Shown: positions 7,938 to 27,385 of the stretch, piece by piece | Position numbering within the stretch: the first letter of the stretch is position 1 | Layout: each line of letters opens with the position of its first letter | Source of the DNA: Saprospiraceae bacterium | GTDB lineage: Bacteria > Bacteroidota > Bacteroidia > Chitinophagales > Saprospiraceae | Length of the DNA stretch: 49,610 nucleotides | NCBI GenBank assembly: GCA_030645295.1 | Contig: JAUSMG010000233.1 | Coordinates: forward strand, 1-49,610 | Reading direction: 5' to 3' | The notes under the pieces: model-generated | Told to the model about the DNA's origin: nothing | The model's database searches: none | Seen by the model: the letters and a program-made list of their open reading frames with translations, nothing else | Translations under genes and position numbers: made by a program

Positions 7938-8450
7938 TCAATGACATTTAAAGTAGTCAAAGGGCTCCAGACACTCCTGACAACGAAACAAGGATTTGCA
8001 AGCGGTAGAGCCAAATTGAGAGATCATCTCTGTGTCCGTAGAGCCACAATGCGGACAAACCAATGCCCGGCGTTCGCCCATTAAAGCCTTTTTATCAAGG
8101 CTTGCTTCGGCGGGCGGCGCGATGCCGTATGCCTGAAGTTTTTGGCGACCTTCTGCGGACAGCCAATCCGTCGTCCAGGCAGGGGAGAGTACCGTTGTTA
8201 CCCGGACGTTTTCAAAACCACCTTCCTGCAACGCGGCACGGATGTTTACCTCGATCACCCCCATGGCAGGGCAACCGCTGTAAGTAGGCGTGATCACAAC
8301 TTCCAGCGCACCATCGTCGGCCAAGCGCACATCACGTATGATTCCTAAGTCATTCACCGTGAGTACGGGGACTTCCGGGTCCGTCACGGATTCGAGTAGG
8401 TGACGGGCTTTCTCGAGAAGTTGATTATGGCTTGGCATTGCCATACGCAT
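7938..8450 (-). CDS. PaaD-like protein (DUF59/MIP18 domain plus C-terminal zinc ribbon)
   Basis: VTDPEVPVLTVNDLGIIRDV and ITPTYSGCPA are DUF59-like. The C-terminal CPHCGS...CQEC ribbon and FDYFK ending are typical of the PaaD family. The start may be 8438. It overlaps the end of the upstream rhodanese gene. Confidence 0.7.
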   Translation of the reverse strand: MRMAMPSHNQLLEKARHLLESVTDPEVPVLTVNDLGIIRDVRLADDGALEVVITPTYSGCPAMGVIEVNIRAALQEGGFENVRVTTVLSPAWTTDWLSAEGRQKLQAYGIAPPAEASLDKKALMGERRALVCPHCGSTDTEMISQFGSTACKSLFRCQECLEPFDYFKCH

Positions 8451-8736
8451 CTTGCCAGGCCATCACACCGCCCTTCAGGTTGAGCACATTTTTAAAGCCA
8501 TTGGCGAGTAAGAGCCCTTGAGCCATGGCCGAGCGGGAACCGGATCGGCAGTGCACTATAATTTCATCGCCTTTATGGTCTTCTAATTCATCCATCGAAT
8601 TTACGAGCGTATTGAGTGGAATGAGTTGCGCGCCGAGGTTGAATTCTTCGAATTCCCAGGGTTCGCGCACATCGATGAAAACGAATTTTTCGCCCGCTTG
8701 GAGCTTTTTGCGGAGGTCTTGAACTGTAATTTCCAT
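8425..8736 (-). CDS. Rhodanese-like sulfurtransferase domain protein
   Basis: 103 aa single rhodanese domain with the active-site loop HCRSGSRS. Confidence 0.85.
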   Translation of the reverse strand: MEITVQDLRKKLQAGEKFVFIDVREPWEFEEFNLGAQLIPLNTLVNSMDELEDHKGDEIIVHCRSGSRSAMAQGLLLANGFKNVLNLKGGVMAWQDAYGNAKP

Positions 8737-8914
8737 GTGCGAAGGTTTTGAAAAAAATTGGATTCTATTTAGGTCAGCTACTAATTACACAAATTTTCAT
8801 GAATTAGATACCGTTTTGGACTGATTTAGCGCAAATACTTGCGAAAAACAGTCGCCAATCAATAGTTGCCAAATCTACAAAATCTTGATTCAGAACATTT
8901 CCCCCTACCCTTCC

Positions 8915-8922
8915 TACTTTTG
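8915..8922 (+). promoter_or_regulatory. Candidate -7 box TACTTTTG upstream of rlmD
   Basis: Exact TAnnTTTG match 20 nt upstream of the ATG at 8942. No clean -33 TTTG at canonical spacing. Confidence 0.35.
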
Positions 8923-8941
8923 CGGCTCATTTAAAAAAAAC

Positions 8942-10363
8942 ATGGCAAGAAAGCAATATACCCTCCCCAATATATTCATCCACGGAATCGCGGATCGGGG
9001 CAAAGGGGTAGGACGAACCGATGAAGGCATGGCCGTTTTTGTAGATGGAGCTGTACCCGGCGACGTGGTAGATGTATTCGTGCAAAAAAAGAAAGGAGGT
9101 TTTGCAGAAGGCAGGGTGGAGACGATTGTAACGCCCTCGCCTGACCGCATAGAGGCCTTTTGCCAGCACTTTGCGATCTGCGGAGGCTGTAAATGGCAAA
9201 ATCTGGATTACCCGGCACAACTGCGGCACAAGCAGCAGGTGGTGGATGACGCGCTGAGACGAATTGGCAAAATTGAAATTGGCGAATTTCTGCCCATTCT
9301 TGGCGCACCGGAGACGGTCTTTTATCGGAATAAATTGGAGTTTGGATTTTCCAACAAACGATGGGTTTTAGAGGGGGAGTTCTCCAAAGAGGCCGAATAT
9401 CCACCAGCATCACTTTATGGTCTGGGCTTCCACAAGGCAGGTTTTTTTGATAAGATCATTGATATCCAGAAATGTTGGCTGCAAGCCGAGCCATCTAATT
9501 TATTGCGCAATACCTGCCGGCAAATCGGGATTGACCAAGAGCTGGAGTTCTATGACCCGCGTCACCACAAGGGTTTTTTGCGCAATCTGATGCTGCGACT
9601 CACCACCACGGGAGAGTTGATGTTGCTCGTTAGTTTTGCACAGAACCGCCCCGATGCCATTGCCCGATATTTGGATGCAGTTCTGGAAAAATTCCCCGAC
9701 CTTACGACGCTGGTGTATTGCATCAATACGAAGTTGAACGACTCCATGTTCGACCTTGAAATGCAGACCTATCGCGGCAAAGGTTTTGTGGTGGAACAAT
9801 TGGGCGACCTGAAATTCAAGATCGGGCCCAAGTCGTTTTTCCAAACCAATTCCTTGCAAGGCAAGCAGTTGTACGATGTGGCCGCCGAGTTCGCCGGGCT
9901 GACCGGGAATGAAAATGTGTATGATTTGTACACCGGTACAGGGAGCATTGCACTTTACCTTGCGCGGTATTGTAAATCGGTGGTGGGCATTGAAGAAATA
10001 CCGGAAGCCATCGCGGATGCGGAGGAAAATATGCGGCTGAACGGCATAGAAAACACCACCTTCTATGCCGGCGATGTGAAATCCATATTATCCCCTGAGT
10101 TTGTGGAAAAACATGGTCGGCCGGATGTCCTGATCACCGATCCGCCACGTGCCGGGATGCACCCAAAGGCTGTAGCGTTTTTACTTGAATTGGCGGCTCC
10201 GCGTATTGTATATGTCAGTTGCAACCCTGCCACTCAGGCGCGTGATCTTCAATTGTTGTCTGAGAAATATGCAGTCTTGAAAGTTCGGCCTGTGGACATG
10301 TTTCCCCATACCCATCATATTGAGAATGTTGCGTTGTTGGAGTTGAAGGATGTTGGACTTTAG
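8942..10363 (+). CDS. rlmD: 23S rRNA (uracil-C5)-methyltransferase, RlmD/RumA family
   Basis: TRAM domain (GKGVGRTDEGMAVFVDGAVPGDVV), Fe-S cysteines CQHFAICGGCKWQ, SAM motif DLYTGTGSIAL, and DPPRAG. I chose the ATG at 8942. The last codons (KDVGL*) lie in the 10350-10553 palindrome. Confidence 0.88.
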   Translation: MARKQYTLPNIFIHGIADRGKGVGRTDEGMAVFVDGAVPGDVVDVFVQKKKGGFAEGRVETIVTPSPDRIEAFCQHFAICGGCKWQNLDYPAQLRHKQQVVDDALRRIGKIEIGEFLPILGAPETVFYRNKLEFGFSNKRWVLEGEFSKEAEYPPASLYGLGFHKAGFFDKIIDIQKCWLQAEPSNLLRNTCRQIGIDQELEFYDPRHHKGFLRNLMLRLTTTGELMLLVSFAQNRPDAIARYLDAVLEKFPDLTTLVYCINTKLNDSMFDLEMQTYRGKGFVVEQLGDLKFKIGPKSFFQTNSLQGKQLYDVAAEFAGLTGNENVYDLYTGTGSIALYLARYCKSVVGIEEIPEAIADAEENMRLNGIENTTFYAGDVKSILSPEFVEKHGRPDVLITDPPRAGMHPKAVAFLLELAAPRIVYVSCNPATQARDLQLLSEKYAVLKVRPVDMFPHTHHIENVALLELKDVGL

Positions 10364-10553
10364 ACTTTGGACGTTGGACTTTGGACTTTGGACTTTTGAC
10401 TTTAGACGTTGGACAAAAGGACGTTGGATTTGATTGGTTGAAAATTGTGCCCAACATCTTTATCCAACAAATCAAATCCAACGTCCAACGTCTAAAGTCC
10501 TTTTGTCTAAAGTCCTATTGTCCAATGTCTAAAGTCCTTTTGTCCAAAGTCCA
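10350..10553. repeat. Word palindrome of about 200 nt built from GGACTTT/GTTGGAC words
   Basis: The left arm (10350-10437) is GATGTTGGACTTTAGACTTTGGACGTTGGACTTTGGACTTTGGAC... The right arm (10464-10553) is ...ATCCAACGTCCAACGTCTAAAGTCCTTTTGTCTAAAGTCC...GTCCAAAGTCCA. Confidence 0.85.
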
Positions 10554-10567
10554 TAAATCAAAATAAA

Positions 10568-11119
10568 ATGTTCAGCCTACTCAGCAAATTCATCTTCTGG
10601 CTTATTGGCTGGAAAATCACCGGGCACTACCCGCGCGAACTGACGCACGTGGTCATTGCTGTGGCGCCGCACACTTCCACCTGGGATTTTCCTATCGGTA
10701 TATTGACCAATAGTGCCGGGAAGTTCCACGCGAACTACATGGGCAAGCATACGCTTTTCAAGCCGCCGTTTGGGTTCATTTTTCGTTGGTTGGGCGGCAT
10801 CCCGGTAGACCGCTCCAAAAACCACAACCTCGTGGCTGCCACGGTGGAAGCATTCAAGCGCGAGCCACGGATACACCTGGTTATTGCGCCCGAAGGAACC
10901 CGCAAAAAAGTAGACAAATTGAAAACAGGGTTTTACCACATTGCCCGGATGGCGGGTGTTCCGATCTGTTTGTGCAAATTTGATTATGCTAAACGCGAGG
11001 TGTTTTTTGACCCTGTACTTTTTTACCCGACTGATAATGAGGCCGCTGATATGGCCCACATCTGGGAATATTTTAAGGGCGTGAAGGGCGGGAATCCAGA
11101 AATGGGCGTGGGTAGTTAG
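10568..11119 (+). CDS. 1-acyl-sn-glycerol-3-phosphate acyltransferase-like (PlsC family)
   Basis: 183 aa with an N-terminal TM segment. HX4D motif (PHTSTWD) and APEGTRKK motif are present. Confidence 0.75.
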   Translation: MFSLLSKFIFWLIGWKITGHYPRELTHVVIAVAPHTSTWDFPIGILTNSAGKFHANYMGKHTLFKPPFGFIFRWLGGIPVDRSKNHNLVAATVEAFKREPRIHLVIAPEGTRKKVDKLKTGFYHIARMAGVPICLCKFDYAKREVFFDPVLFYPTDNEAADMAHIWEYFKGVKGGNPEMGVGS

Positions 11120-11202
11120 GCAGCGGCCCACCCAAGCCTCCGTATCTTAGACCCATATTTCCCCTCCGTTTTTACGCTCCATTCTTTCAAACGCCTGTTT
11201 TT

Positions 11203-14200
11203 ATGAAAAGCCGATTTTTACCCGCTTTACCCGCCGTAGCTTTCCTGTCCGTCAAGCCTTGGCAGGCGGGAGTGAAGGCGGGCATCCTCCTCCTTTCCAT
11301 TTTTCTTACCTCGAATCTCTCTGCACAACAGGACAGTATCAAGATCTTTGGCCTTGTACAACCTACTTGTGCTTGTTTTGGTAGTATTGATATTGGTGTA
11401 ACCGGCGGGCCCATGCAACCCCCTTCCACGAGTTATGCTTATTTTTGGTCCAACGGTTCCACCACCCAGGACCTGTTCAACCTTTGTCCCGGTCAATATT
11501 GCGTCACAGTCAGCAATGGGAATACCAATATTGCACCTGGTATTATGTGCTTTACAGTACAGCAAATTCCTTATACCCCGCTTGAAATTATTTCCAGTAA
11601 CACAGCCCCTTGTAATTTCGACTCCTCGGGTGTCAATGATTGCGAAAAAGTGTGCCCCGGCATTACGGTTACCTATTCTGTGTCGGTGCCAAACCCAAAT
11701 GGTACCAGTTCGCCCATTGGATGGCAGGTATCAGGTGCCGTTTATTGGGTCGTAAATACCAATAACTCCCCTTTCTTCTCCAGCATCACGGTTACCTGGG
11801 GAGGCCCCGGTACAGGGAGTGTCACCGTATTTACGGATGGTGCAGGGGGACTGAACTGTTCGGGGGAAGACGCCTTATGTGTTACAGTCATTGAAGAACC
11901 GGAAGCCCTATTTTCAAGTAGCCCTGCTGCTGTGATTGCAGGTGGCCCGCTCCAGGTTTGTTTGGGACAAATAGTCAATTTTCAAAACCTCAGCACTGGG
12001 GGTGCGGATTCCTACGAATGGCTATTTAGCGATGACCTCAGTACAAGTTCAAGTGAAAATCCGCAACATACTTACCTCATTCCGGGGATGCACACCGTTC
12101 GGCTCATAGCCCGGAGTGAGTGTCTTTGCTCCGATACTACCTTAATGACGGTGGAAGTGCTCAATGCCCAGGCCCCTACACTCGACTGTGTATCAACCAT
12201 TTGTCCCGGTGAAACGGTCACCTATACCGCTTCGAATGGTTGTGCGCCTTTCTCCTGGACAGTAAGCGGAGCGGGCACGGTGCTCAATGGGGGCACGCCA
12301 ATGTCCGACACCATCTCCGTGCAGTGGAACGGCGGCCCAATCGGCACCATAACACTGGGCGCACAACCCTGCTCCGGCGCAGCATGCCCCTTGGCCGGAG
12401 TGATCGAAATCCCGATCATAACCAGCAATGCCCAGATCGTGGGCGAGGAACGTGTATGCCCGGGCGCCACCGAGGTTTACACCATTGAACCTTTTGGTGG
12501 AACCGGATTTGTATGGACCCTGCCCACAGGCGGGATCATCGTGGATGGGCAAGGCACCAACCGCGTCACGGTGCAATGGAACACGTTCCCCAATCCAGCC
12601 CCTGCTGCTGATCACTCGCTGTACGTTCAATACACCAATTGTTATCTCGGCTGCGGGGGCGCAGATCTCATTCATATACGCATCCTTCCGTCTTTTTCGA
12701 TCAGCGGCCCCATAGAGATTTGTGAAAATGAAAGCGGCCCATACACCGCCACCTTCAATCCCAGCAACTCCCCTATTCTCTGCGATTGGATCCTCACAGC
12801 CCCAGATGGAAGCGCGTCCTGGACTTCGATAGCGGCCAGTGTGGTCGCCATCCCATTTTTGAGCAGCCCTGGCGTTTATCGGCTTTCAGCGACCCCTGCC
12901 GATCCGAATCAGACTTGCTCCAATGAAGCCGATTGGGCCGTCAGCGTTCGTGCGCTTCCGGCCGATCCGACCAGTATTTTGGGCGAAACCAATATTTGTC
13001 CCGGAACGGCTTATACTTACGAAGCCACGGGTTTGCCTGCCGGATCCAACATTCGGTGGACGGTAAAAAACGGGGCCGGAGCAACGCAGACCCTGGCCGG
13101 AAACCCGCTCAATGTGACTTGGGGAAATACGGGCCCTTATTGGCTCAGCGCTGCTCAGGTCAGCAAAGATGGTCTTGGCTGCCTCTCTGATACCGTGGGC
13201 CTGGTGGCAACCCCCATAGTGGCCCCTACCCTTTCAGGAACGTCCATTGTTTGTGAAGATACGAAGGGTAGTTACGCCATGCTTAACCTTCAAAATGTTG
13301 ACATTCAATGGAATATAAGTCCCTCTACTGCAGGCGCAATTGCCAATGGACAAGGGACGAACAATGTGGATATATTCTGGAGTCAGGCGGGTGGCCACGT
13401 TATCAGCGTGTCGGTATGCGGTCAAAGTGCCCAATTCCCAGTAACCGTTATAACCAATCCTGATCCCGTACCACTGCTCCCGGCGCCTGGCGTTTGTCCA
13501 GGCGCAACGACCATGGTGCAAACGGTTTCAACCTACGCAAGTTATGCCTGGAAAGATGAATCCGGCATAATCCTGAGCACTTCCGCTGCGATTGTCCTGG
13601 GAGCAGGCGTTTACTCCATCGAGGTCATTGATGCCAATGGCTGTACAGGAGCATCGGAGTTTGAGATCGCCAGTTTGGATGCACCCAATGTGTCGCTCAC
13701 CACGGCCGATGCAACCGGTTTTTGCAACAACGCCTCCACCGTATCACTCACGGCCCTGACCAATACCAACGGGAACTATAGCTATCAATGGTTCAAAGAT
13801 GGCCTCCCTTTCCCGGGGACAAATTCCACCATTTTTACCAATCAATACGGAACCTATACCGTACAAGCCACCAATAGCTACGGCTGTACGGCCACTTCGG
13901 GTTCTATTTTGCTGTTTAATTATTGTGGCGGCGGCGGCGGTGGAAGTGGTTTTCCCGGCGGCGGCGGCAATTTTTGTGCAGCGGGCAGTGTACAACTCGT
14001 GCCAGATCCTACTCCACGCTGCGATTCTTTCCATCTTGTTTTAAATGACCTCACCGGTCTTTATATACCTGGCAGCGCGCAATGGACGACCGGCATTTCC
14101 GGGGGCGCTGTACTTGGTACGGCAATAGGCGACGATGCGACCTTCGTATACTCCAACGCGGGCAAATACCTGGTGCTGGTGCGGGTGGCATTGTCTGACG

Positions 14201-17200
14201 GAACCTTTTGTATTGCCCTCGATTCTGTATTTGTGGATGCCGTTGCGCGATTTGATGAACGCGTCGATTGTCCTGGCGCGATGACCAATTTTGAAAATCA
14301 AAGTGAAATCCTGCCCAATGTCAACATTACCAATTACACCTGGAATTTTGACGACCCGGCCTCTGGGTTGAACAATACTTCCAGCCTGGAAAATCCCGCA
14401 CATGCGTTTTCCCCTGCCGGGATCTATGATGTAACCCTGACCATAACTGCTGCAAGCGGTTGCACCGCAAGCATTTCAAAACAAGTAGAAATTCCGGATT
14501 CCGATCCGCCTGTTTTTGCCGATCCGGCGGCCATTTGTGCCGGTAACGCCCTTGAATTTGCAGCAGCGCCTAACCCCGATATCATTGAACTTAGCTGGGA
14601 TTTTGGTGACCCCGCCTCTGGTCCCGCCAACGATGCAATGGGGAATACGGTATACCACGATTTCCCGGCAGGTACTTATATGGTGACCGCTACTTCTAAT
14701 AACGTATTTGGCTGCACGGCCACTTTTACCCGCAGTATTACGGTACAAGCCAGCACCCTGAGCGGAAACATCAATCCCGCCAGCCCCGGACCGATCTGTG
14801 AAGGCAGCAATATCACACTCACTGCCCCAGCGGGTGCGGTTTCCTACCTGTGGTCGGACGGCAGCAACACAACTTCCCAAACCTTGAGCGTCGGCCAAGA
14901 GGGTTCTTATAAAGTTACCCTCACCGACGCGAATGGCTGTACCTACTCGCCACCGGCGGTGAATGTGGAAATAAACCCTTCGCCTGACGCATTGATAAAA
15001 GCTTTGTTGTTCAATGACTTAGGTCAAGTAATTGGAAACTCCTACCCAACCGTAACCGTCTGTGCAGGAGAAGATGTGGCATTGCAGGCAATCAGCAATG
15101 GTGGCGCTAGTTTCAGCTGGTCAGGCGGCAATGGCAATGATCAGGTTGTGTTTTTTACCGATGACCGCAATACACTTTTGTCCGTTGGCACCCACTTGTA
15201 TTCCGTGACGGTGACCAGCCAGAGCACAGGCTGCACGGCTGTATCTGATCCATTCCTGATGACGGTAAACCCGGTACCCAGTGGTTTTTTCATCAGCAGT
15301 CCTACATATTGCGCAGGCGATGCGAACGTGATTACCTACAATGGCCCTACCCCTGCCAACTGGCAATTTTTCTGGAACAACGGGGCCCCAGGCACCACAC
15401 TGACGACTGAGGATCCCGGCGCTTATTATATCCGGGTCATCAATGAATTTGGCTGCGAAACCAAAAGTAACGTACAAACCATACTTCCTGGGCCGCAAGT
15501 GAGCAGCATTCCGGCGGGTTGCCATACCCGCTGCAGCCCTGATACACTTTGTATCCCGAATTTGCCCAATATCACTTCCTGGCAATGGTTTCTAGATGGT
15601 AACCCGATTCCAGGTGCTACTTCGCCAAATTTCATTGCGCAGCAAAGCGGCACATATTGGGCAGAATTGACCGATATTTTTGGATGCAGTAATGAAAGTG
15701 ATCCCCTGTCGCTCAATCTTTTCACGGGTTATGGGAATATCTTAGGTCAGGTATGGTCAGATGTAAACAACAACGGGATGATCGATGCGGCAGATACCCT
15801 GCTTTCCGGCGTGACCGTGGTGGTGTATCAAAACGGCTCGCTTTTTAGTTCGGCGACCTCCGGTCTTGCCGGCGATTTTGCACTTACGAATGTGCTTTCC
15901 ACTGACTATACGTTTGCGGTAGATCCATTTTCGCTGCCCTTTGGCTGGTCCATCGTGATTGGAAATGACCAAACCACACTTTCCGGCTGCGACGTAACAG
16001 GCGATGCAGATTTTCTGTTACACTTTGGTTGTCAGGCATTTGGAACGCTACAACTTGCGGCTTGTCCGGGCGGTTTCGCGACCTACAATGGCACGAACAT
16101 CTCGGTAGGCGGTTCACAAACATTCCAGCTGACGTCCGCTCAAGGATGTGACTCAACGCTGGTTGTCAGTGTAATGGCCTTGCAAACCTCTTCCAGTGCG
16201 GTCAATTTGAGCGCTTGCCCGGGTAGTTCGGCCAATTACAACGGGACGAATATCCCTGTTGGCACGACCCAGGTTTTCACCCTGACCAATTCGGCGGGCT
16301 GTGATTCACTCATGACGGTAACCGTGACCGCTTTACCCATCCCCAGCAGTTCGCTCAATTTGAGCACCTGTCCGGGCAACACGGTGAATTATAACGGTAC
16401 GAACCTGGCCGTCGGGGAGGTTCAGAATTTCACGTTCCAAAATTCAATGGGTTGCGATTCGATCGTGACCGTGACGGTGTTAGAAGCGTCGCACTTTGTG
16501 CTTTTCGTGGATGCTGCCGTTTGCCAGGGCTCGTTCCTTGATTATCAGGGCCTACAGATTCCGGCAGGCACCGAATTTATCTTCACGCAGGTGAATTCGG
16601 AGGGTTGCATCGATACGACTATTATCACGGCTTTGGCCTTACCTCCCCCTGTCTCGAACCTGAATTTGCAGGCTTGTCCAAATGGGACGGTGGATTACAA
16701 TGGAACTAGTCTACCTGTGGGCGCTGTACAGGATTTTACCCTGACTACTTTGGCTGGGTGTGATTCAATCGTGACGGTGACAGTGACGGCTCTGCCAATT
16801 CAATCCAGCTCGCTCAGCCTGAGCGCTTGCCCCAATGGCTCGGCAATTTATAATGGTACAAGTATCCCGGTGGGCACGAGTCAGGATTTCACTTTGATCA
16901 ATTCATTGGGCTGCGATTCAATTGTAACGGTCACAGTGACCGCTTTGTCAAACTCAAGTACCGCTTTCAGTGTGGGCGTTTGTCCCGGCGAAACCTACCC
17001 TTATCAAGGCACAGCACTCGATGCAGGGGATATTCAGAGTTTTACCCTGACCAATTTTGCCGGTTGCGACTCCATCGTGACGGTTTCGGTCTTCCAGAAA
17101 AACGTGTCGGCCAATGTGATCGATGTCAGCGTTTGTCCCGGCTCGACCTACACTTACGCAGGCGAGGAAATTGCTGCAGGCGACTCAAAAGCGTTTCATT

Positions 17201-21829: not shown

Positions 21830-21874
21830 CCCCGCCCCTGCGATTTGGAATCGTGGGGGCGGGGGTATTTTTTG
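21830..21874 (+). terminator. Strong rho-independent terminator after the padR-pspC operon
   Basis: CCCCGCCCC-tg-CGATT-tgg-AATCG-tg-GGGGCGGGG followed by GTATTTTTT. Confidence 0.8.
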
Positions 21875-21955: not shown

Positions 21956-22174
21956 ATGACAAAACTTGTCTTAGAAATTCCGAATCAAAATGACCTCGAT
22001 GTATTGCTGCCGCTGCTCAGGCGGTTGCGAATTCGTTTTTCTAATCTGAAAGTCTCCACTTCAAAAGAAGGTGAATTAGAAGAAGCGCTACGCATTGTTC
22101 GGCAGGGCTGCGACATGAGTACCTACGGAGATGCGCTCCAATATCAAATTGAAACTCGGCAGGTCAACTTTTGA
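21956..22174 (+). CDS. Hypothetical 72-aa protein, function unknown
   Basis: MTKLVLEIPNQNDLDVLLPLLRRLRIRF... A -7-like TAACTTTG box lies at 21887-21894. The last five codons and the stop are supplied by the 24-nt element at 22163-22186. Confidence 0.45.
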   Translation: MTKLVLEIPNQNDLDVLLPLLRRLRIRFSNLKVSTSKEGELEEALRIVRQGCDMSTYGDALQYQIETRQVNF

Positions 22175-22237: not shown

Positions 22238-22444
22238 ATGGAACACACTTCGCTTCTTCACCGAATCACTATTGACCCGGCCATCTGTCATGGGAAGCCC
22301 GTTATAAGAGGACTTCGTTATCCTGTGGAAAGCATTTTGGAATATTTGGCAGCGGGCGATACCATAGAGGATATACTCGCCGAATTTTCTGATCTAGAGT
22401 CGGATGATATTCTTGCTTGCTTGGCATTTGCAGCACAAGCGTAA
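22238..22444 (+). CDS. DUF433 domain protein (antitoxin-like small DNA-binding protein)
   Basis: 68 aa. ITIDPAICHGKPVIRGLRYPVESILEYLAAGDTIEDILAEF...L..DDILACLAFA is the characteristic DUF433 pattern. Confidence 0.75.
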   Translation: MEHTSLLHRITIDPAICHGKPVIRGLRYPVESILEYLAAGDTIEDILAEFSDLESDDILACLAFAAQA

Positions 22445-22494: not shown

Positions 22495-22502
22495 TACCTT
22501 TG
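22495..22502 (+). promoter_or_regulatory. Candidate -7 box TACCTTTG upstream of the SIR2-like/TIR gene
   Basis: Exact TAnnTTTG match 20 nt before the ATG at 22522. Confidence 0.35.
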
Positions 22503-22521: not shown

Positions 22522-23865
22522 ATGCCTACTCCAGCCGCCTCGCTTACCGATTTTTACCAGAACATTGCCCGTAAGGTCAAGGAGGGAAGTTGTGTACTTT
22601 TCCTCGGCCCTTCCGCTTTAACCGCCAAAGACAAAGACGGAAAGTGGCAGCCTATCACAGACCTTTGCGCACGGCATTTGGCCGACAAATACGACCTGGA
22701 CTTTGGCGCCGCCGAGGAGTTCAAGCTGCCTTATGTTGCCAGTCTGCTGCGCATTCAAAACCGCTCTACGGACAATGTTTTGCAGGAAGAAGTCGCCAAA
22801 TTCTACACCGATATGGCGGACAAGTTTGAACTCCACCCCGCAGTGGAGCAACTGACCGACCTGAAGTTCCGCATCGTCATCAACACCACGCCCGACAATT
22901 TTGTAACCAAACTCTACGACCAGATTGCGCAGGCTTACCATACCGATTATTACAATTGGTATAAGCCAAATGCAGGTTTTAATTTTGATTTTGACAAGGA
23001 TTCCCGTGTAGTTATTTACAATCTTTTGGGCGCCTATCAAAAGCCTGAATCTTTGGTGCTGACCTACAAACAACAGCTCAGCTACATTAAAAAAATAGTG
23101 GGCGAACAGCAAAACGAGCGCATCCCCGACGCGCTCACCAATGCGTTCAAAGACTTTCGCCACCACCTATTTCTCGGCTTCGACTTTGAAGACTGGGCAC
23201 TGCGCCTCCTGCTCGACACGCTCTATAAAAATGTACGGGACAATGTGCAGCCCTACTCTTTCACTACCAAAGACGAACTCCCGGCCGAGGCGGACACCAA
23301 AGTGTTTTTCCAGGGTGAATTTGGCATGCAGTTTCCACAAGACAGCCTCGAAAGCTTCGTTACAAACCTCGTCAGCGAGTACCAAAAATTAGACAATCCC
23401 GCAGCCGCAGTCAGTGGACAAGCCCCGCGCGCCAAAGTGCTGGTGCTCCACAATGAAGTCGCCGATAAAGATGGATACGATTTGTTAATCAAGCACTTGC
23501 GCAATCTGCCTGCCCAGTTTGTAAGCCTCGCCGATGCCGTGGGACAAGGCGATGTACAAGCCTGGATTCGAAAAATGATGGACGAATGTCAGGTAGTTCT
23601 GCCGCTCTTAAGCGCTGATTTTTACGACGATGCCAACAACCCTTCGGTGCCGCTTTTGGCAGAAATTGCCCAAAAGAACAACCCGCGTAAAGGCTTTTTG
23701 GTCATGCCTATTTTGCTCAAAACCGTAGGTCTCGACGGGCCACTCGCCCAATTGCCCACCCTGCGCCCTACCGACAAGCATCCCATTGTAGGAGGTGGAA
23801 AAGAGAGTCAATACGCGACAGAGGTAGCAGAAGGCTTGAAGAAGTATATTGAAAACCTGAAGTGA
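22522..23865 (+). CDS. SIR2-like (SIR2_2-type, catalytic residues degenerate) N-terminal domain fused to a C-terminal TIR-like domain; candidate defence effector
   Basis: 447 aa. The N-terminal blocks follow SIR2_2 order: CVLFLGPSAL, RIVINTTPDNFVTKLY, VVIYNLLGAYQKPESLVLTYKQQLSY, HHLFLGFDFEDWALRLLL. The C-terminal ~130 aa follow a TIR_2-like layout: KVLVLHNEVADKDGYDLLIKHL, ECQVVLPLLSADFY, PLLAEIAQ, FLVMPILL. These calls rest on motif recognition only; no HMM was run. Confidence 0.6.
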   Translation: MPTPAASLTDFYQNIARKVKEGSCVLFLGPSALTAKDKDGKWQPITDLCARHLADKYDLDFGAAEEFKLPYVASLLRIQNRSTDNVLQEEVAKFYTDMADKFELHPAVEQLTDLKFRIVINTTPDNFVTKLYDQIAQAYHTDYYNWYKPNAGFNFDFDKDSRVVIYNLLGAYQKPESLVLTYKQQLSYIKKIVGEQQNERIPDALTNAFKDFRHHLFLGFDFEDWALRLLLDTLYKNVRDNVQPYSFTTKDELPAEADTKVFFQGEFGMQFPQDSLESFVTNLVSEYQKLDNPAAAVSGQAPRAKVLVLHNEVADKDGYDLLIKHLRNLPAQFVSLADAVGQGDVQAWIRKMMDECQVVLPLLSADFYDDANNPSVPLLAEIAQKNNPRKGFLVMPILLKTVGLDGPLAQLPTLRPTDKHPIVGGGKESQYATEVAEGLKKYIENLK

Positions 23866-23874
23866 TCAAAATCC

Positions 23875-25485
<1,611 letters not shown>

Positions 25486-26845: not shown

Positions 26846-27385
26846 ATGGAATTACAAATCATCCAATCGAAAATACACACCCTGCGCGGCCAACGTGTGA
26901 TGCTTGATTTCGACCTTGCTGTATTGTATGATGTTGAAACAAAATACCTAAAACGTGCCGTAAAAAGGAATTTGGTACGCTTTCCGACTGATTTCTGCTT
27001 TGAACTAGACAAAGGGGAATGGGAAAACTTGAGGTTCCAATTTGGCACCTCAAGTTGGGGTGGCTCTCGCTACCTACCCTTCGCGTTCACTGAACACGGC
27101 GTAGCGATGTTGTCAAGTGTCCTAAATAGTGACCGGGCAATTATAACCAACATAGCCATCATCCGTGCTTTTATTTCCCTTCGACATTATGCCCTCAGCC
27201 TCGCTGAACTGTCTGACAAAGTGCTGGCGCACGATAAAGAGCTGGCAGACATAAACGAAGTCTTACGCTGGCTCGGCGATGAAAACCAGGCCCGATACGA
27301 TGAAAACCAAGCCCTGCAAAGCGGAGAGATAACGCCCGGCGAATGGGCAGAGCGGGCGAGAATTGGATTTCGAAAAGACACCTGA
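26846..27385 (+). CDS. ORF6N domain-containing protein (KilA-N-related, phage/mobile-element associated DNA-binding family)
   Basis: 179 aa. IHTLRGQRVMLDFDLAVLYDVETKYLKRAVKRNLVRFPTDFCFEL...WGGSRYLPFAFTEHGVAMLSSVLNSDRAI is the ORF6N pattern. A -7-like TAATTTTG box lies at 26766-26773. Confidence 0.8.
   Translation: MELQIIQSKIHTLRGQRVMLDFDLAVLYDVETKYLKRAVKRNLVRFPTDFCFELDKGEWENLRFQFGTSSWGGSRYLPFAFTEHGVAMLSSVLNSDRAIITNIAIIRAFISLRHYALSLAELSDKVLAHDKELADINEVLRWLGDENQARYDENQALQSGEITPGEWAERARIGFRKDT

Follow-up and report, generated by a model that had tools for sequence, protein, structure and literature searches.

STAND/NLR-like immune proteins that carry SIR2 or TIR effectors are already known and include Avs5, components of Thoeris and the plant TNLs. 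Avs5 is one polypeptide, combining a SIR2 domain with an nSTAND3 NTPase and cytoplasmic TPR-type sensors, and filament formation activates the SIR2. The Asn of its TTNxD motif is essential; PaAvs5-1 N110A is inactive, as is the N112A variant of ThsA. Some Avs5 members carry an NG variant of the HG motif and, as PaAvs5-1 shows, a SIR2 domain may be active even when it lacks the HG His. In Thoeris the two folds occur on separate proteins, joined by a cyclic-ADPR signal that is sensed by a SLOG or Macro domain, and changing the catalytic Glu of ThsB to Gln is inactivating. TIR output domains, exemplified by the plant TNLs and Cat1, act when clustered by an oligomerising platform. The Saprospiraceae, the family considered here, are filamentous bacteria. 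Such hosts fit the link with a multicellular habit drawn for the nSTAND1/EAD conflict systems of Kaur, Burroughs, Iyer and Aravind (2020, 2021).

We analysed a 49.6-kb stretch of Saprospiraceae DNA, hereafter the window, in which a complete open reading frame (ATG start, TGA stop; Table 1) encodes a SIR2-like/TIR protein. An earlier note had described a stand-alone fusion of a degenerate SIR2-like domain to a TIR domain and proposed a role in NAD-targeting defence. The motif strings that it quoted are all present in the protein at the positions checked, namely CVLFLGPSAL (residues 24-33), RIVINTTPDNFVTKLY (117-132), VVIYNLLGAY... (163-188), HHLFLGFDFEDWALRLLL (214-231), KVLVLHNEVADKDG (305-318), ECQVVLPLLSADFY (355-368), PLLAEIAQ (377-384) and FLVMPILL (392-399). 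Full-length homologues number 228, with identities of 49-90%. NCBIfam has no model for the protein, and neither the single sequence nor a full-length family profile gave a useful match to PDB sequences; such matches needed a broader profile of the SIR2 domain (A2) and separate TIR profiles (A4, A5). The AlphaFold2 model has a pLDDT of 81.7, falling below 50 at residues 293-300 of the linker, where dN/dS is 0.30 compared with 0.05 in both domains. In our best reading this protein serves an NLR-like nSTAND1 system, as yet undescribed, as its output or adaptor subunit, and the data point to an undescribed immune-type or cell-death signalling module.

Table 1. Positions in the window of the SIR2-like/TIR gene and its features
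Feature	Position	Strand	Remarks
Promoter motif TACCTTTG	22495..22502	+	Fits the -7 motif TAnnTTTG; begins 27 nt upstream of the ATG
SIR2-like/TIR gene ORF	22522..23865	+	Complete, 447 aa, stop codon included; SIR2-like domain, linker, TIR domain
SIR2_2-like domain	22522..23391	+	aa 1-290; lacks the Asn and the His; predicted non-catalytic; constant module of the family
Thr123 codon	22888..22890	+	Column of the essential TTNxD Asn (ThsA N112, PaAvs5 N110)
Leu169 codon	23026..23028	+	Column of the HG-motif catalytic His (ThsA H152, KomC H146)
Interdomain linker	23392..23430	+	aa 291-303; poorly conserved, low model confidence
TIR domain	23431..23862	+	aa 304-447; TIR_2 in 31 of 37 members; profile finds solved TIRs
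Leu378 codon	23653..23655	+	Canonical TIR catalytic Glu column (AbTir E208, WCxxEL motif)
Glu381 codon	23662..23664	+	Catalytic Glu candidate of the earlier note; three residues (one helical turn) past the canonical column

The assignment of the N-terminal half holds. Pfam PF13289 (SIR2_2) covers residues 119-252 (E = 7.8e-12, 45.9 bits against a cut-off of 24.5) and is matched by 37 out of 37 aligned homologues. In Foldseek searches the AlphaFold2 model matches the defence SIR2 proteins ThsA (E = 1.6e-11), KomC (1.7e-9), Avs5 (AVAST5, 1.1e-8) and DSR2 (2.1e-8), which form filaments or oligomers. The catalytic columns were placed by HMM alignment to the solved structures 6lhx, 7uxt and 8zsf. 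The half is degenerate, as had been suggested; Thr123 replaces the Asn, and alignment to ThsA and KomC bears out that the catalytic His reads Leu, at position 169. Among 120 close homologues the first of these columns holds T in 85, A in 23, S in 11 and N in one, with Asp125 of the motif retained. The second is L in 71 and F in 49 of the same sequences, and in 149 wider cluster representatives it is F (85), Y (27), L (21) or, once, H. The GAGxS loop position reads LGPSA, Gly29 being invariant and Cys24 nearly so; alignments to ThsA begin after this loop. The SIR2-like domain, with a dN/dS of 0.049, is predicted on this basis to be non-catalytic.

The TIR assignment of the C-terminal half stands at the level of the family. 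TIR_2 matches 31 of 37 members with a best E-value of 4.5e-7, and the relatives L074, L076 and P0261 lie far above the cut-off of 28 bits; the window protein alone scores 17.6 bits, under that cut-off. Searched against solved structures, a profile of the domain finds Cat1 (2.4e-8) and AbTIR (6e-5), also PdTIR, L6 and MyD88. Full-length ThsA aligned across the whole model, and a SLOG-like C-terminal domain was considered; it is ruled out by the domain profile, which finds TIR proteins only. The dN/dS of this domain is 0.053.

The Glu of PLLAEIAQ, put forward in the earlier note as catalytic, is Glu381 and by alignment falls outside the canonical column, which Leu378 occupies. Two independent alignments place Leu378 there, at the start of helix alpha-C (AbTir E208, ThsB E85); the register comes from a MAFFT alignment (A4) with canonical relatives, and from HMMER using a family-only profile against the L6 TIR structure 3ozi and A4 against AbTIR and Cat1. 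Glu381 is within a helix predicted at 376-384 in the AlphaFold2 model. Its column is E in 104, D in 13 and Q in three of the 120 close homologues; in the 37-sequence alignment those with Gln at 381 have Asp at 380, and essentially all close homologues carry an acidic residue at 380/381. Many of the wider relatives have Gln in the catalytic Glu column and about half retain the canonical Glu. The claim that the protein targets NAD is thereby weakened: both folds are present, but by alignment the TIR domain lacks its canonical Glu as well. Since both NADase centres are degenerate by alignment and Gln is so widespread among the wider relatives, an NAD-directed output is uncertain. NADase activity of the SIR2-like/TIR protein appears doubtful from the aligned residues, and the balance tips slightly against the TIR output being enzymatic.

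Does the fusion constitute a system by itself, as had been proposed? The relatives argue otherwise. Among 79 related loci from species-representative genomes, 62 have an nSTAND1 gene no more than 700 nt downstream of the SIR2-like/TIR gene; the others comprise 13 linked to mnmE, three at a contig edge and one with neither. Normally, in Saprospiraceae and relatives, one or two nSTAND1 genes follow directly downstream of the gene, and the stop and start codons often share a 4-nt overlap. The partner carries the Pfam domain nSTAND1, a STAND NTPase for which PADLOC holds no model. The nSTAND1b model matches ORC/Cdc6, EfAvs5, Apaf-1 and Avs4. A transmembrane-like segment with a positive-inside charge bias is present in 116 of 120 nSTAND1 homologues, and the partner is predicted to be membrane-anchored with its C-terminal domain outside the membrane. 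The SIR2-like domain is the constant module and is combined with TIR_2, CHAT (P0215, P0249), EAD1 (L081), EAD11 or nSTAND1. P0153 contains nSTAND1, two SIR2_2 domains and EAD11; P0184 is a fusion of the SIR2-like domain with nSTAND1 that also carries a separate phospholipase-like stretch. We consider it highly probable that the SIR2-like/TIR protein belongs to an nSTAND1 system.

In the clade of the window gene (13 further genomes) the gene occupies the pspC-mnmE interval and has no STAND gene close by. Within the window, no tblastn match to nSTAND1 was stronger than E = 0.2, ten further large ORFs scanned with Pfam included no STAND or EAD gene, and no separate TIR gene adjoins the SIR2-like/TIR gene. 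The clade is a derived one; in the tree the mnmE-linked copies group together, nested among nSTAND1-linked copies. The ancestral site, next to LytTR, lacks both the original SIR2/TIR gene and the first STAND gene, nSTAND1a, but still has an intact nSTAND1b. Two genomes of this clade keep an intact nSTAND1 elsewhere. In the first, a single contig of 3,041,127 bp carries both nSTAND1b (P0317) and, some 720 kb from it, the orphan orthologue L001; nSTAND1b adjoins LytTR and a 516-aa gene, and the intergenic stretch that precedes the three-gene module is preserved there. The second case pairs L089 and L037, both from assembly JAFLBO01. The layout with a lone nSTAND1b is found on at least 14 contigs, with Walker A, Walker B and the reading frame kept and an omega of 0.05-0.07 where measurable. 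One nanopore-derived MAG has the full module (L010) together with an mnmE-linked copy (L066), the latter split into three ORFs and the only orphan with a broken frame. Extrapolation from the two sister genomes makes it fairly probable that the window gene acts in trans with an unlinked nSTAND1.

The immediate surroundings are largely as had been reported. The stop codon TGA is followed by the nine nucleotides TCAAAATCC and the GTG start of mnmE at 23875, with no terminator-like site in between. The neighbouring orphan DUF433 gene is real (Pfam), the toxin-antitoxin content of the pspC-mnmE interval varies, and orphan antitoxin genes next to the SIR2-like/TIR gene indicate that the interval collects broken cassettes. 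The gene itself is no recent arrival in a small insertion, being fixed at this site throughout the clade. In 57 of 68 family loci the motif TAnnTTTG, which we take to be the -7 element of the Bacteroidota sigma-A promoter, starts 20-45 nt ahead of the start codon, and in the mnmE-linked copies it is at -27 in all but one (L001, -29). It is not enriched across the window (36 found against 29.6 expected); evidence for a promoter therefore comes from the conserved position and not from mere presence. A sigma-70 promoter scan is uninformative for Bacteroidota. On positional conservation, TACCTTTG is likely the gene's own promoter.

Values of dN/dS are 0.053 for the orphans, with dS saturated in this comparison across 13 genomes, 0.078 for mnmE and 0.04-0.09 for partnered copies. 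The constraint is the same in both domains and does not shift between orphan and partnered copies, and dN of the orphan gene is lower than that of mnmE. Purifying selection acts strongly on the relocated gene and also on nSTAND1b where it stands alone. The patchy, mobile distribution expected of a defence-island gene is not seen; the gene keeps its synteny, is passed on vertically and is under a constraint equal to that on mnmE. Searches of the phage collection, of IMG/VR viral contigs and of plasmids gave no copy, the sole exception being a Haliscomenobacter plasmid with a distant module made up of SIR2-EAD11 and an nSTAND1-like component. Vertical inheritance with strong constraint is unusual for anti-phage systems and counts against our best reading.

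How might such a protein work? We put at about even the chance that the gene has moved away from its partner and specifies the SIR2-like/TIR subunit of an NLR-like system that comprises several genes and is centred on nSTAND1. The SIR2-like domain would serve as a non-catalytic coupling and oligomerisation module, docking on the cytoplasmic NTPase of the membrane-anchored nSTAND1. A trigger would be sensed by nSTAND1, possibly through the C-terminal domain predicted to be outside the membrane, and nSTAND1 would then oligomerise with ATP and cluster the SIR2-like/TIR subunits. The clustered TIR domains would deliver the output, the likeliest form of which would be NAD+ cleavage or an NAD-derived signal, possibly by way of the displaced Glu381, with growth arrest or cell death as the end result. 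In the genome from which the window comes the pathway would work in trans, with nSTAND1 encoded outside the 49.6 kb.

A possible but unlikely alternative keeps the nSTAND1 partner and makes both domains pseudo-enzymes. Neither would cleave NAD+; the protein would be a scaffold or adaptor of the animal MyD88 type, or a receptor for an NAD/ADP-ribose-type ligand, passing the state of the transmembrane STAND protein on to other effectors in a pathway of signalling or programmed death that is inherited vertically. The lack of canonical catalytic residues in both domains, the recurrent subfamily with Gln in the TIR Glu column, the housekeeping-like constraint and the deep synteny are all consistent with this, and non-enzymatic TIRs, MyD88 for example, are among the matches of the TIR profile. 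Pure adaptor domains, EAD1 and EAD11, fill the variable position in paralogous architectures, and the phospholipase-like stretch of P0184 could be the real effector. However, CHAT, a true enzyme, takes the same position in some relatives, about half of the wider relatives have the canonical Glu, and 117 of the 120 close homologues have E or D at 381, Asp380 accompanying the Gln carriers. The SIR2 of PaAvs5-1 is active without the HG His, and neither an effector acting downstream nor a second TIR protein was found. Less probable still is a specific form of this idea, in which filamentous Bacteroidota possess a vertically inherited, chromosomally fixed, transmembrane NLR-like pathway with components at unlinked loci, where the external C-terminal domain senses something outside the cytoplasm and nSTAND1 signals through the double pseudo-NADase (a His-less SIR2-like plus a Glu-shifted TIR domain). 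The latter would be a non-enzymatic adaptor rather than an anti-phage effector that depletes NAD, and the pathway would be a bacterial parallel to signalling from a receptor to a TIR adaptor.

It is very improbable that the gene has been domesticated for a housekeeping or regulatory role unrelated to STAND proteins, for example with mnmE (co-transcription, tRNA modification) or in NAD metabolism. Such a role would suit the vertical inheritance, the dN lower than that of mnmE and, in the window, the 9-nt spacing with no terminator. This spacing is not kept in every clade member, however. The mnmE start is approximately 1.4-1.6 kb downstream in seven clade members (L006, L007, L009, L014, L015, L037 and L066), and in at least five of these (L006, L007, L009, L037 and L066) the gap contains an ORF of about 450-470 aa on the opposite strand. 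The linkage is consequently not operonic in general, and a functional link to mnmE is ruled out as a general explanation. Co-retention of the lone nSTAND1b and the unchanged constraint on orphan and partnered copies also argue against domestication.

The proposal of the earlier note, a single-gene, partner-free NAD-depleting protein of abortive infection, is very improbable. It would account for a gene with its own promoter motif, for the lack of a partner gene within the 49.6 kb and for a single gene strongly conserved at the site in at least 13 genomes. Against it are the 62 of 79 loci that are operonic with nSTAND1, the existence of nSTAND1 fusions, the intact, constrained nSTAND1b at the ancestral site in two orphan-type genomes and the lack of catalytic residues at the canonical columns in either fold; nor is there an evident sensor here for an NADase that is unregulated or regulates itself. 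That the orphan copy is a decaying remnant of a broken defence operon, as loss of the adjacent partner, the broken antitoxin cassettes nearby and the three ORFs of L066 might suggest, is ruled out with near certainty by a dN/dS of 0.05 at saturated dS in 13 genomes, with the frame intact in all except the one nanopore-derived MAG.

We return to the nSTAND1 system with a relocated subunit and compare it with those described. As had been supposed, the system is absent from known defence catalogues. PADLOC yields weak ThsA matches only (7.7e-5 for the window protein, in the SIR2 part), and the combination of nSTAND1 with a SIR2-like/TIR protein is found neither there nor in the literature searched. 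Avs5 is similar in placing a PF13289-type SIR2-like domain at the effector position of a STAND/NOD NTPase. EfAvs5 is matched by the models of both the window protein and the partner, AVAST5 filament structures by that of the window protein; the relative P0184 has the SIR2-like domain fused straight to STAND, and the HG His is also missing in some active Avs5 proteins. In contrast to Avs5, the present family is split over two or three genes, uses as its NTPase an nSTAND1 protein predicted to be anchored in the membrane with the C-terminal domain outside, includes a TIR domain and has Thr and Leu in place of the Asn and His, and no STAND gene adjoins the SIR2-like/TIR gene in the window; Pfam finds no NTPase domain, and hence no Avs5 architecture, in the 447-residue protein.

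The resemblance to Thoeris lies in the combination of a SIR2_2-type fold with a TIR fold. For the N-terminal half, Foldseek and HMM searches both match ThsA structures best, and the TIR halves of canonical relatives match PADLOC ThsB1 at 1e-29 to 1e-31. Here, however, both folds share a single chain with no SLOG or Macro domain (Pfam) and without the catalytic Asn and His of SIR2, and the conserved partner is an NTPase of the STAND class. The nSTAND1/EAD conflict systems share the nSTAND1 partner, the EAD1 and EAD11 adaptors seen in relatives, and the arrangement of a constant module with variable effectors. Neither paper (Kaur et al. 2020, 2021) describes a SIR2-like constant module or SIR2-like/TIR subunit with nSTAND1, nor a subunit moved away from its NTPase; the 2020 text never uses the term SIR2, and that of 2021 uses it a single time, in a different context. 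Plant TNLs and Cat1 are alike in having TIR output domains, and the TIR profile matches Cat1, AbTIR and L6, but they carry the catalytic Glu at the WxxxE position, where the window protein has Leu, with Glu one turn later.

What sets the family apart from these systems is an effector-position subunit that is a separate protein fusing both NADase folds, with a SIR2-like fold that lacks the catalytic Asn and His over at least 150 sequence clusters yet is a highly conserved constant module. Also distinctive are a STAND partner predicted to be membrane-anchored with an external domain, and a module inherited vertically under housekeeping-like constraint. The window indicates that a subunit parted from its NTPase by hundreds of kilobases can still be maintained, and operon-based defence-finding tools would therefore miss or misread the system. 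If the TIR domain is active, this would be a new coupling of a STAND sensor to NAD chemistry; if inactive, a bacterial case of the pseudo-enzyme adaptors of NLR-like signalling.

The gene in the window is a member of a family that encodes SIR2-like/TIR subunits of nSTAND1 systems. The motifs listed for its protein in the earlier note are all in place, and the domain evidence shows that the reading of a SIR2-TIR fusion in a single polypeptide is correct. Pfam SIR2_2 covers residues 119-252 (E=7.8e-12, 45.9 bits, cut-off 24.5). An AlphaFold2 model (37 homologues, pLDDT 81.7) reveals two alpha/beta domains with a disordered linker, residues 293-300, and Foldseek relates the model to defence SIR2 proteins, namely ThsA (1.6e-11), KomC/HAM-SIR2 (1.7e-9), AVAST5/EfAvs5 (1e-8 to 2e-7) and DSR2 (2e-8). 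TIR_2, on residues 314-407, scores 17.6 bits, below the cut-off of 28; of the 37 family members, 31 match this model, the best at 4.5e-7. A C-terminal-domain profile matches solved TIR proteins, among them Cat1 (2.4e-8), AbTIR (6e-5), PdTIR, L6, MyD88 and TcpB; a SLOG-like domain was considered and dismissed, as this search gave nothing of that kind. PADLOC returned weak ThsA matches only, and neither an NCBIfam scan nor a PDB search with the single sequence gave a match.

There are 228 full-length homologues at 49-90% identity, and those with names are all Saprospiraceae or Bacteroidota. At E<=1e-3 an exhaustive profile search yielded 3000 cluster representatives, of which 125 reached E<=1e-30; both domains are covered in 87 of the 149 best new representatives. 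A Pfam nSTAND1 gene of approximately 750 aa lies directly downstream of homologues at 71%, 63% and 50% identity, with a 4-nt overlap in two of the three. In 79 loci from species-representative genomes, nSTAND1 occurs within 700 nt downstream in 62, mnmE comes next without nSTAND1 in 13, a contig edge is reached in three and neither gene is present in one. Relatives in Spirosoma, Fibrella and Chitinophaga (23-28% identity) combine EAD1 with the SIR2-like domain, followed by nSTAND1. Other representatives fuse SIR2-like to nSTAND1 (P0184), EAD11 to SIR2_2 (P0142), nSTAND1 to two SIR2_2 and EAD11 (P0153) or SIR2-like to CHAT (P0215, P0249), and in Haliscomenobacter hydrossis, a relative in culture, plasmid pHALHY02 has a gene for SIR2_2-EAD11 together with an nSTAND1 homologue and two WD40 genes. 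On the basis of these downstream genes and fusions, the His-less SIR2-like domain is a constant module that combines with variable effector or adaptor modules and is tied physically or genetically to nSTAND1. Residues 729-797 of P0184, past the NTPase, weakly match PADLOC phospholipase effector models (1.7e-6), and therefore the true effector of some relatives may be neither SIR2 nor TIR.

The window gene is a relocated copy, with constraint still in force, and the STAND partner is kept in trans in sister genomes. No nSTAND1 gene is encoded in the 49.6-kb window, which has the ordinary gene content of a Bacteroidota chromosome (PNPase, RNA methyltransferases, MnmE, SprB and Por-tail proteins). 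The gene order PadR, PspC, variable small genes, SIR2/TIR, mnmE is common to the 13 mnmE-linked loci, L001 and the window. In a tree, these mnmE-linked copies form a single clade nested within the nSTAND1-linked radiation, and the sister locus, L057, carries two tandem nSTAND1 genes. A search seeded with L057 nSTAND1 located P0317, a 733-aa nSTAND1, on the 3,041,127-bp contig of L001, approximately 720 kb from the SIR2/TIR gene and directly downstream of a LytTR gene and a 516-aa gene. In L087 and L088, where the SIR2/TIR gene has 86% identity to that of the window, the order is 516-aa gene, LytTR, SIR2/TIR, nSTAND1a (4-nt overlap) and nSTAND1b, a and b denoting the first and second tandem genes of the full module. 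P0317 is the nSTAND1b orthologue (77-78% identity as opposed to 68% to nSTAND1a), and the LytTR and 516-aa genes share 85-86% identity across full-module and lone-nSTAND1b layouts. In L086, a lone-nSTAND1b locus, nSTAND1b is abutted by the intergenic sequence that precedes SIR2/TIR in L087, and no SIR2/TIR remnant is left at the site. Assembly JAFLBO01 provides a second split case (L037 at mnmE, L089 at LytTR), the lone-nSTAND1b layout occurs on at least 14 metagenomic contigs, and in one MAG a full module (L010) coexists with the mnmE-linked copy L066, the latter frameshifted in a long-read assembly. The simplest history is that SIR2/TIR was duplicated into the pspC-mnmE interval, after which the original copy and nSTAND1a were lost.

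Median dN/dS for the mnmE-linked copies is 0.053, compared to 0.078 for mnmE and 0.052 for pspC; values for partnered copies lie between 0.04 and 0.09. The SIR2-like (0.049) and TIR (0.053) domains are under equal constraint, unlike the linker (0.30). Lone nSTAND1b genes retain open frames and Walker A and B motifs, with omega of 0.05-0.07 where dS is unsaturated. Flanking ORFs are common to partnered modules even at approximately 50% protein identity, and searches of phage records and viral contigs gave no copies. In 57 of 68 loci a TAnnTTTG motif, mostly TACCTTTG, starts 20-45 nt ahead of the start codon; in mnmE-linked copies it starts at -27, with the sole exception of L001 (-29).

Features of the window and of related loci
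Feature	Locus	Position	Strand	Remarks
Terminator-like hairpin	window	21830-21864	+	16 pairs, 11 G-C, then T run; strong
Two small genes	window	21956-22174; 22238-22444	+	orphan-antitoxin-like
TAnnTTTG motif	window	22495-22502		upstream of SIR2/TIR
SIR2/TIR	window	22522-23865	+	ATG start, 447 aa
mnmE	window	23875-25485		536 aa; 493-521 aa in relatives
ORF6N-domain gene	window	26846-27385	+	E=4.8e-33; downstream of Methyltransf_10 RNA methyltransferase gene
nSTAND1 genes with conserved segment	L086; L087; others	8001-10202; 10001-14576		outside window
LytTR gene; 516-aa gene	L087	7764-8219; 5935-7485 (-)		equivalents in L086, L089, L091
SIR2_2-EAD11 or EAD11 genes	L091; L093; L085	13389-14202; 13439-14202; 732-1802		
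SIR2_2-EAD11 or EAD11 gene	L001	13397-16348	-	

The hairpin directly follows pspC, at the upstream edge of an interval that varies among genomes, with a CHU_C gene in L001 and an opposite-strand gene of approximately 460 aa in L006, L009 and L037. The small genes, one DUF433 (E=2.3e-25) and one of 72 aa, each have TAnnTTTG upstream (21887 and 22206). Their homologues in L066 and L009 precede a DUF5615/PIN-like toxin gene and a PIN gene, respectively; both toxin genes are missing from the window, and the pair look like orphan antitoxins. As the earlier note had it, the SIR2/TIR TGA stop lies 9 nt before the mnmE GTG start, with no terminator-like site between. The essential GTPase gene mnmE carries a repeat-expanded insertion (24856-24938 and 25148-25182), made up of an in-frame 30-nt tandem repeat encoding AVSRNAVPGE units (2.8 copies, 94% matches) and a 7-nt repeat (five copies). 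KilA-N-like DNA-binding domains of the ORF6N type are frequent in mobile elements; a gene similar to that of the window follows mnmE in L007.

The 151-aa LytTR DNA-binding protein and the conserved 516-aa protein, which has no Pfam match, are always encoded just upstream of the module in the clade of the window gene and may serve as its regulator and as an additional component, respectively; in more distant module-bearing loci no LytTR gene was found at this place. Genomes of the clade also encode SIR2_2-EAD11 proteins (approximately 355 aa) some 5 kb from the lone nSTAND1b, and L001 a 983-aa EAD11 protein near mnmE, beside a type I restriction HsdR gene; together these suggest that the same organisms have a wider EAD11-coupled network.

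Are the catalytic residues conserved? A SIR2-like-domain profile aligned to BcThsA (6lhx, 4.6e-8), SeThsA (7uxt, 2.1e-9) and KomC (8zsf, 3.1e-7) places Thr123, third residue of the family motif NT[TN]PD, in the column of the TTNYD Asn, and Leu169, the Phe/Leu of YNL[FL]G, in that of the HG His. In 120 close homologues the Asn column holds Thr in 85, Ala in 23, Ser in 11 and Asn in one, the His column Leu in 71 and Phe in 49. Among 149 wider-family representatives the latter is Phe in 85, Tyr in 27, Leu in 21 and His in one only. ThsA N112A and PaAvs5-1 N110A are inactive. Loss of the His alone is not decisive, because NG replaces HG in some Avs5 proteins that are active. By alignment, the window domain lacks both canonical catalytic residues.

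AbTir E208 in NYELD, Cat1 WDELE and L6 LMELAEI mark the catalytic Glu column of TIR domains. Leu378 occupies this column when canonical relatives are aligned with MAFFT, and again when HMMER aligns a profile of the close family alone to L6. Glu381, the catalytic candidate of the earlier note, thus falls outside the column, three residues on in the same predicted helix (376-384); position 381 is Glu in 104 sequences, Asp in 13 and Gln in three. Across the wider family, roughly half of the sequences inspected carry Glu in the canonical column, and a recurrent subfamily with YKNQLQQAL has Gln there; E85Q inactivates ThsB.

The nSTAND1b model (pLDDT 80.1) matches ORC/Cdc6, EfAvs5, Apaf-1 and Avs4. 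It comprises an AAA+ core and a winged-helix hairpin, then a continuous helix (442-537) and an all-helical C-terminal domain. Close to residue 500, 116 of 120 homologues and also the distant partners have a single strongly hydrophobic, transmembrane-like segment of 19 residues. The 20 residues preceding this segment contain six to seven Lys/Arg, as against one to two after it, a positive-inside bias from which the NTPase is predicted to be cytoplasmic and the C-terminal helical domain of approximately 210 aa to lie outside the cytoplasm. A membrane anchor on a STAND NTPase is unusual, and the literature passages that we consulted make no mention of one.

The closest structural matches of the SIR2-like domain, ThsA, KomC, Avs5 and DSR2, are oligomeric or filamentous, and filament formation activates the SIR2 of Avs5. 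By analogy, we infer that the SIR2-like domain would couple the subunit to the STAND protein and mediate assembly. The TIR domain, once clustered, would give the output, which may be either NAD chemistry, with TIR as an enzyme, or non-enzymatic scaffolding. PADLOC v2 does not cover the nSTAND1 partner, and the two Aravind-lab papers defining nSTAND1 and EAD domains do not include a SIR2-like partner. Full-text literature searches gave nothing for a SIR2-TIR fusion and Avs5 only for SIR2-STAND. Known STAND/NLR-like systems include ones that have SIR2 or TIR modules; the present family differs from them in several unusual features.
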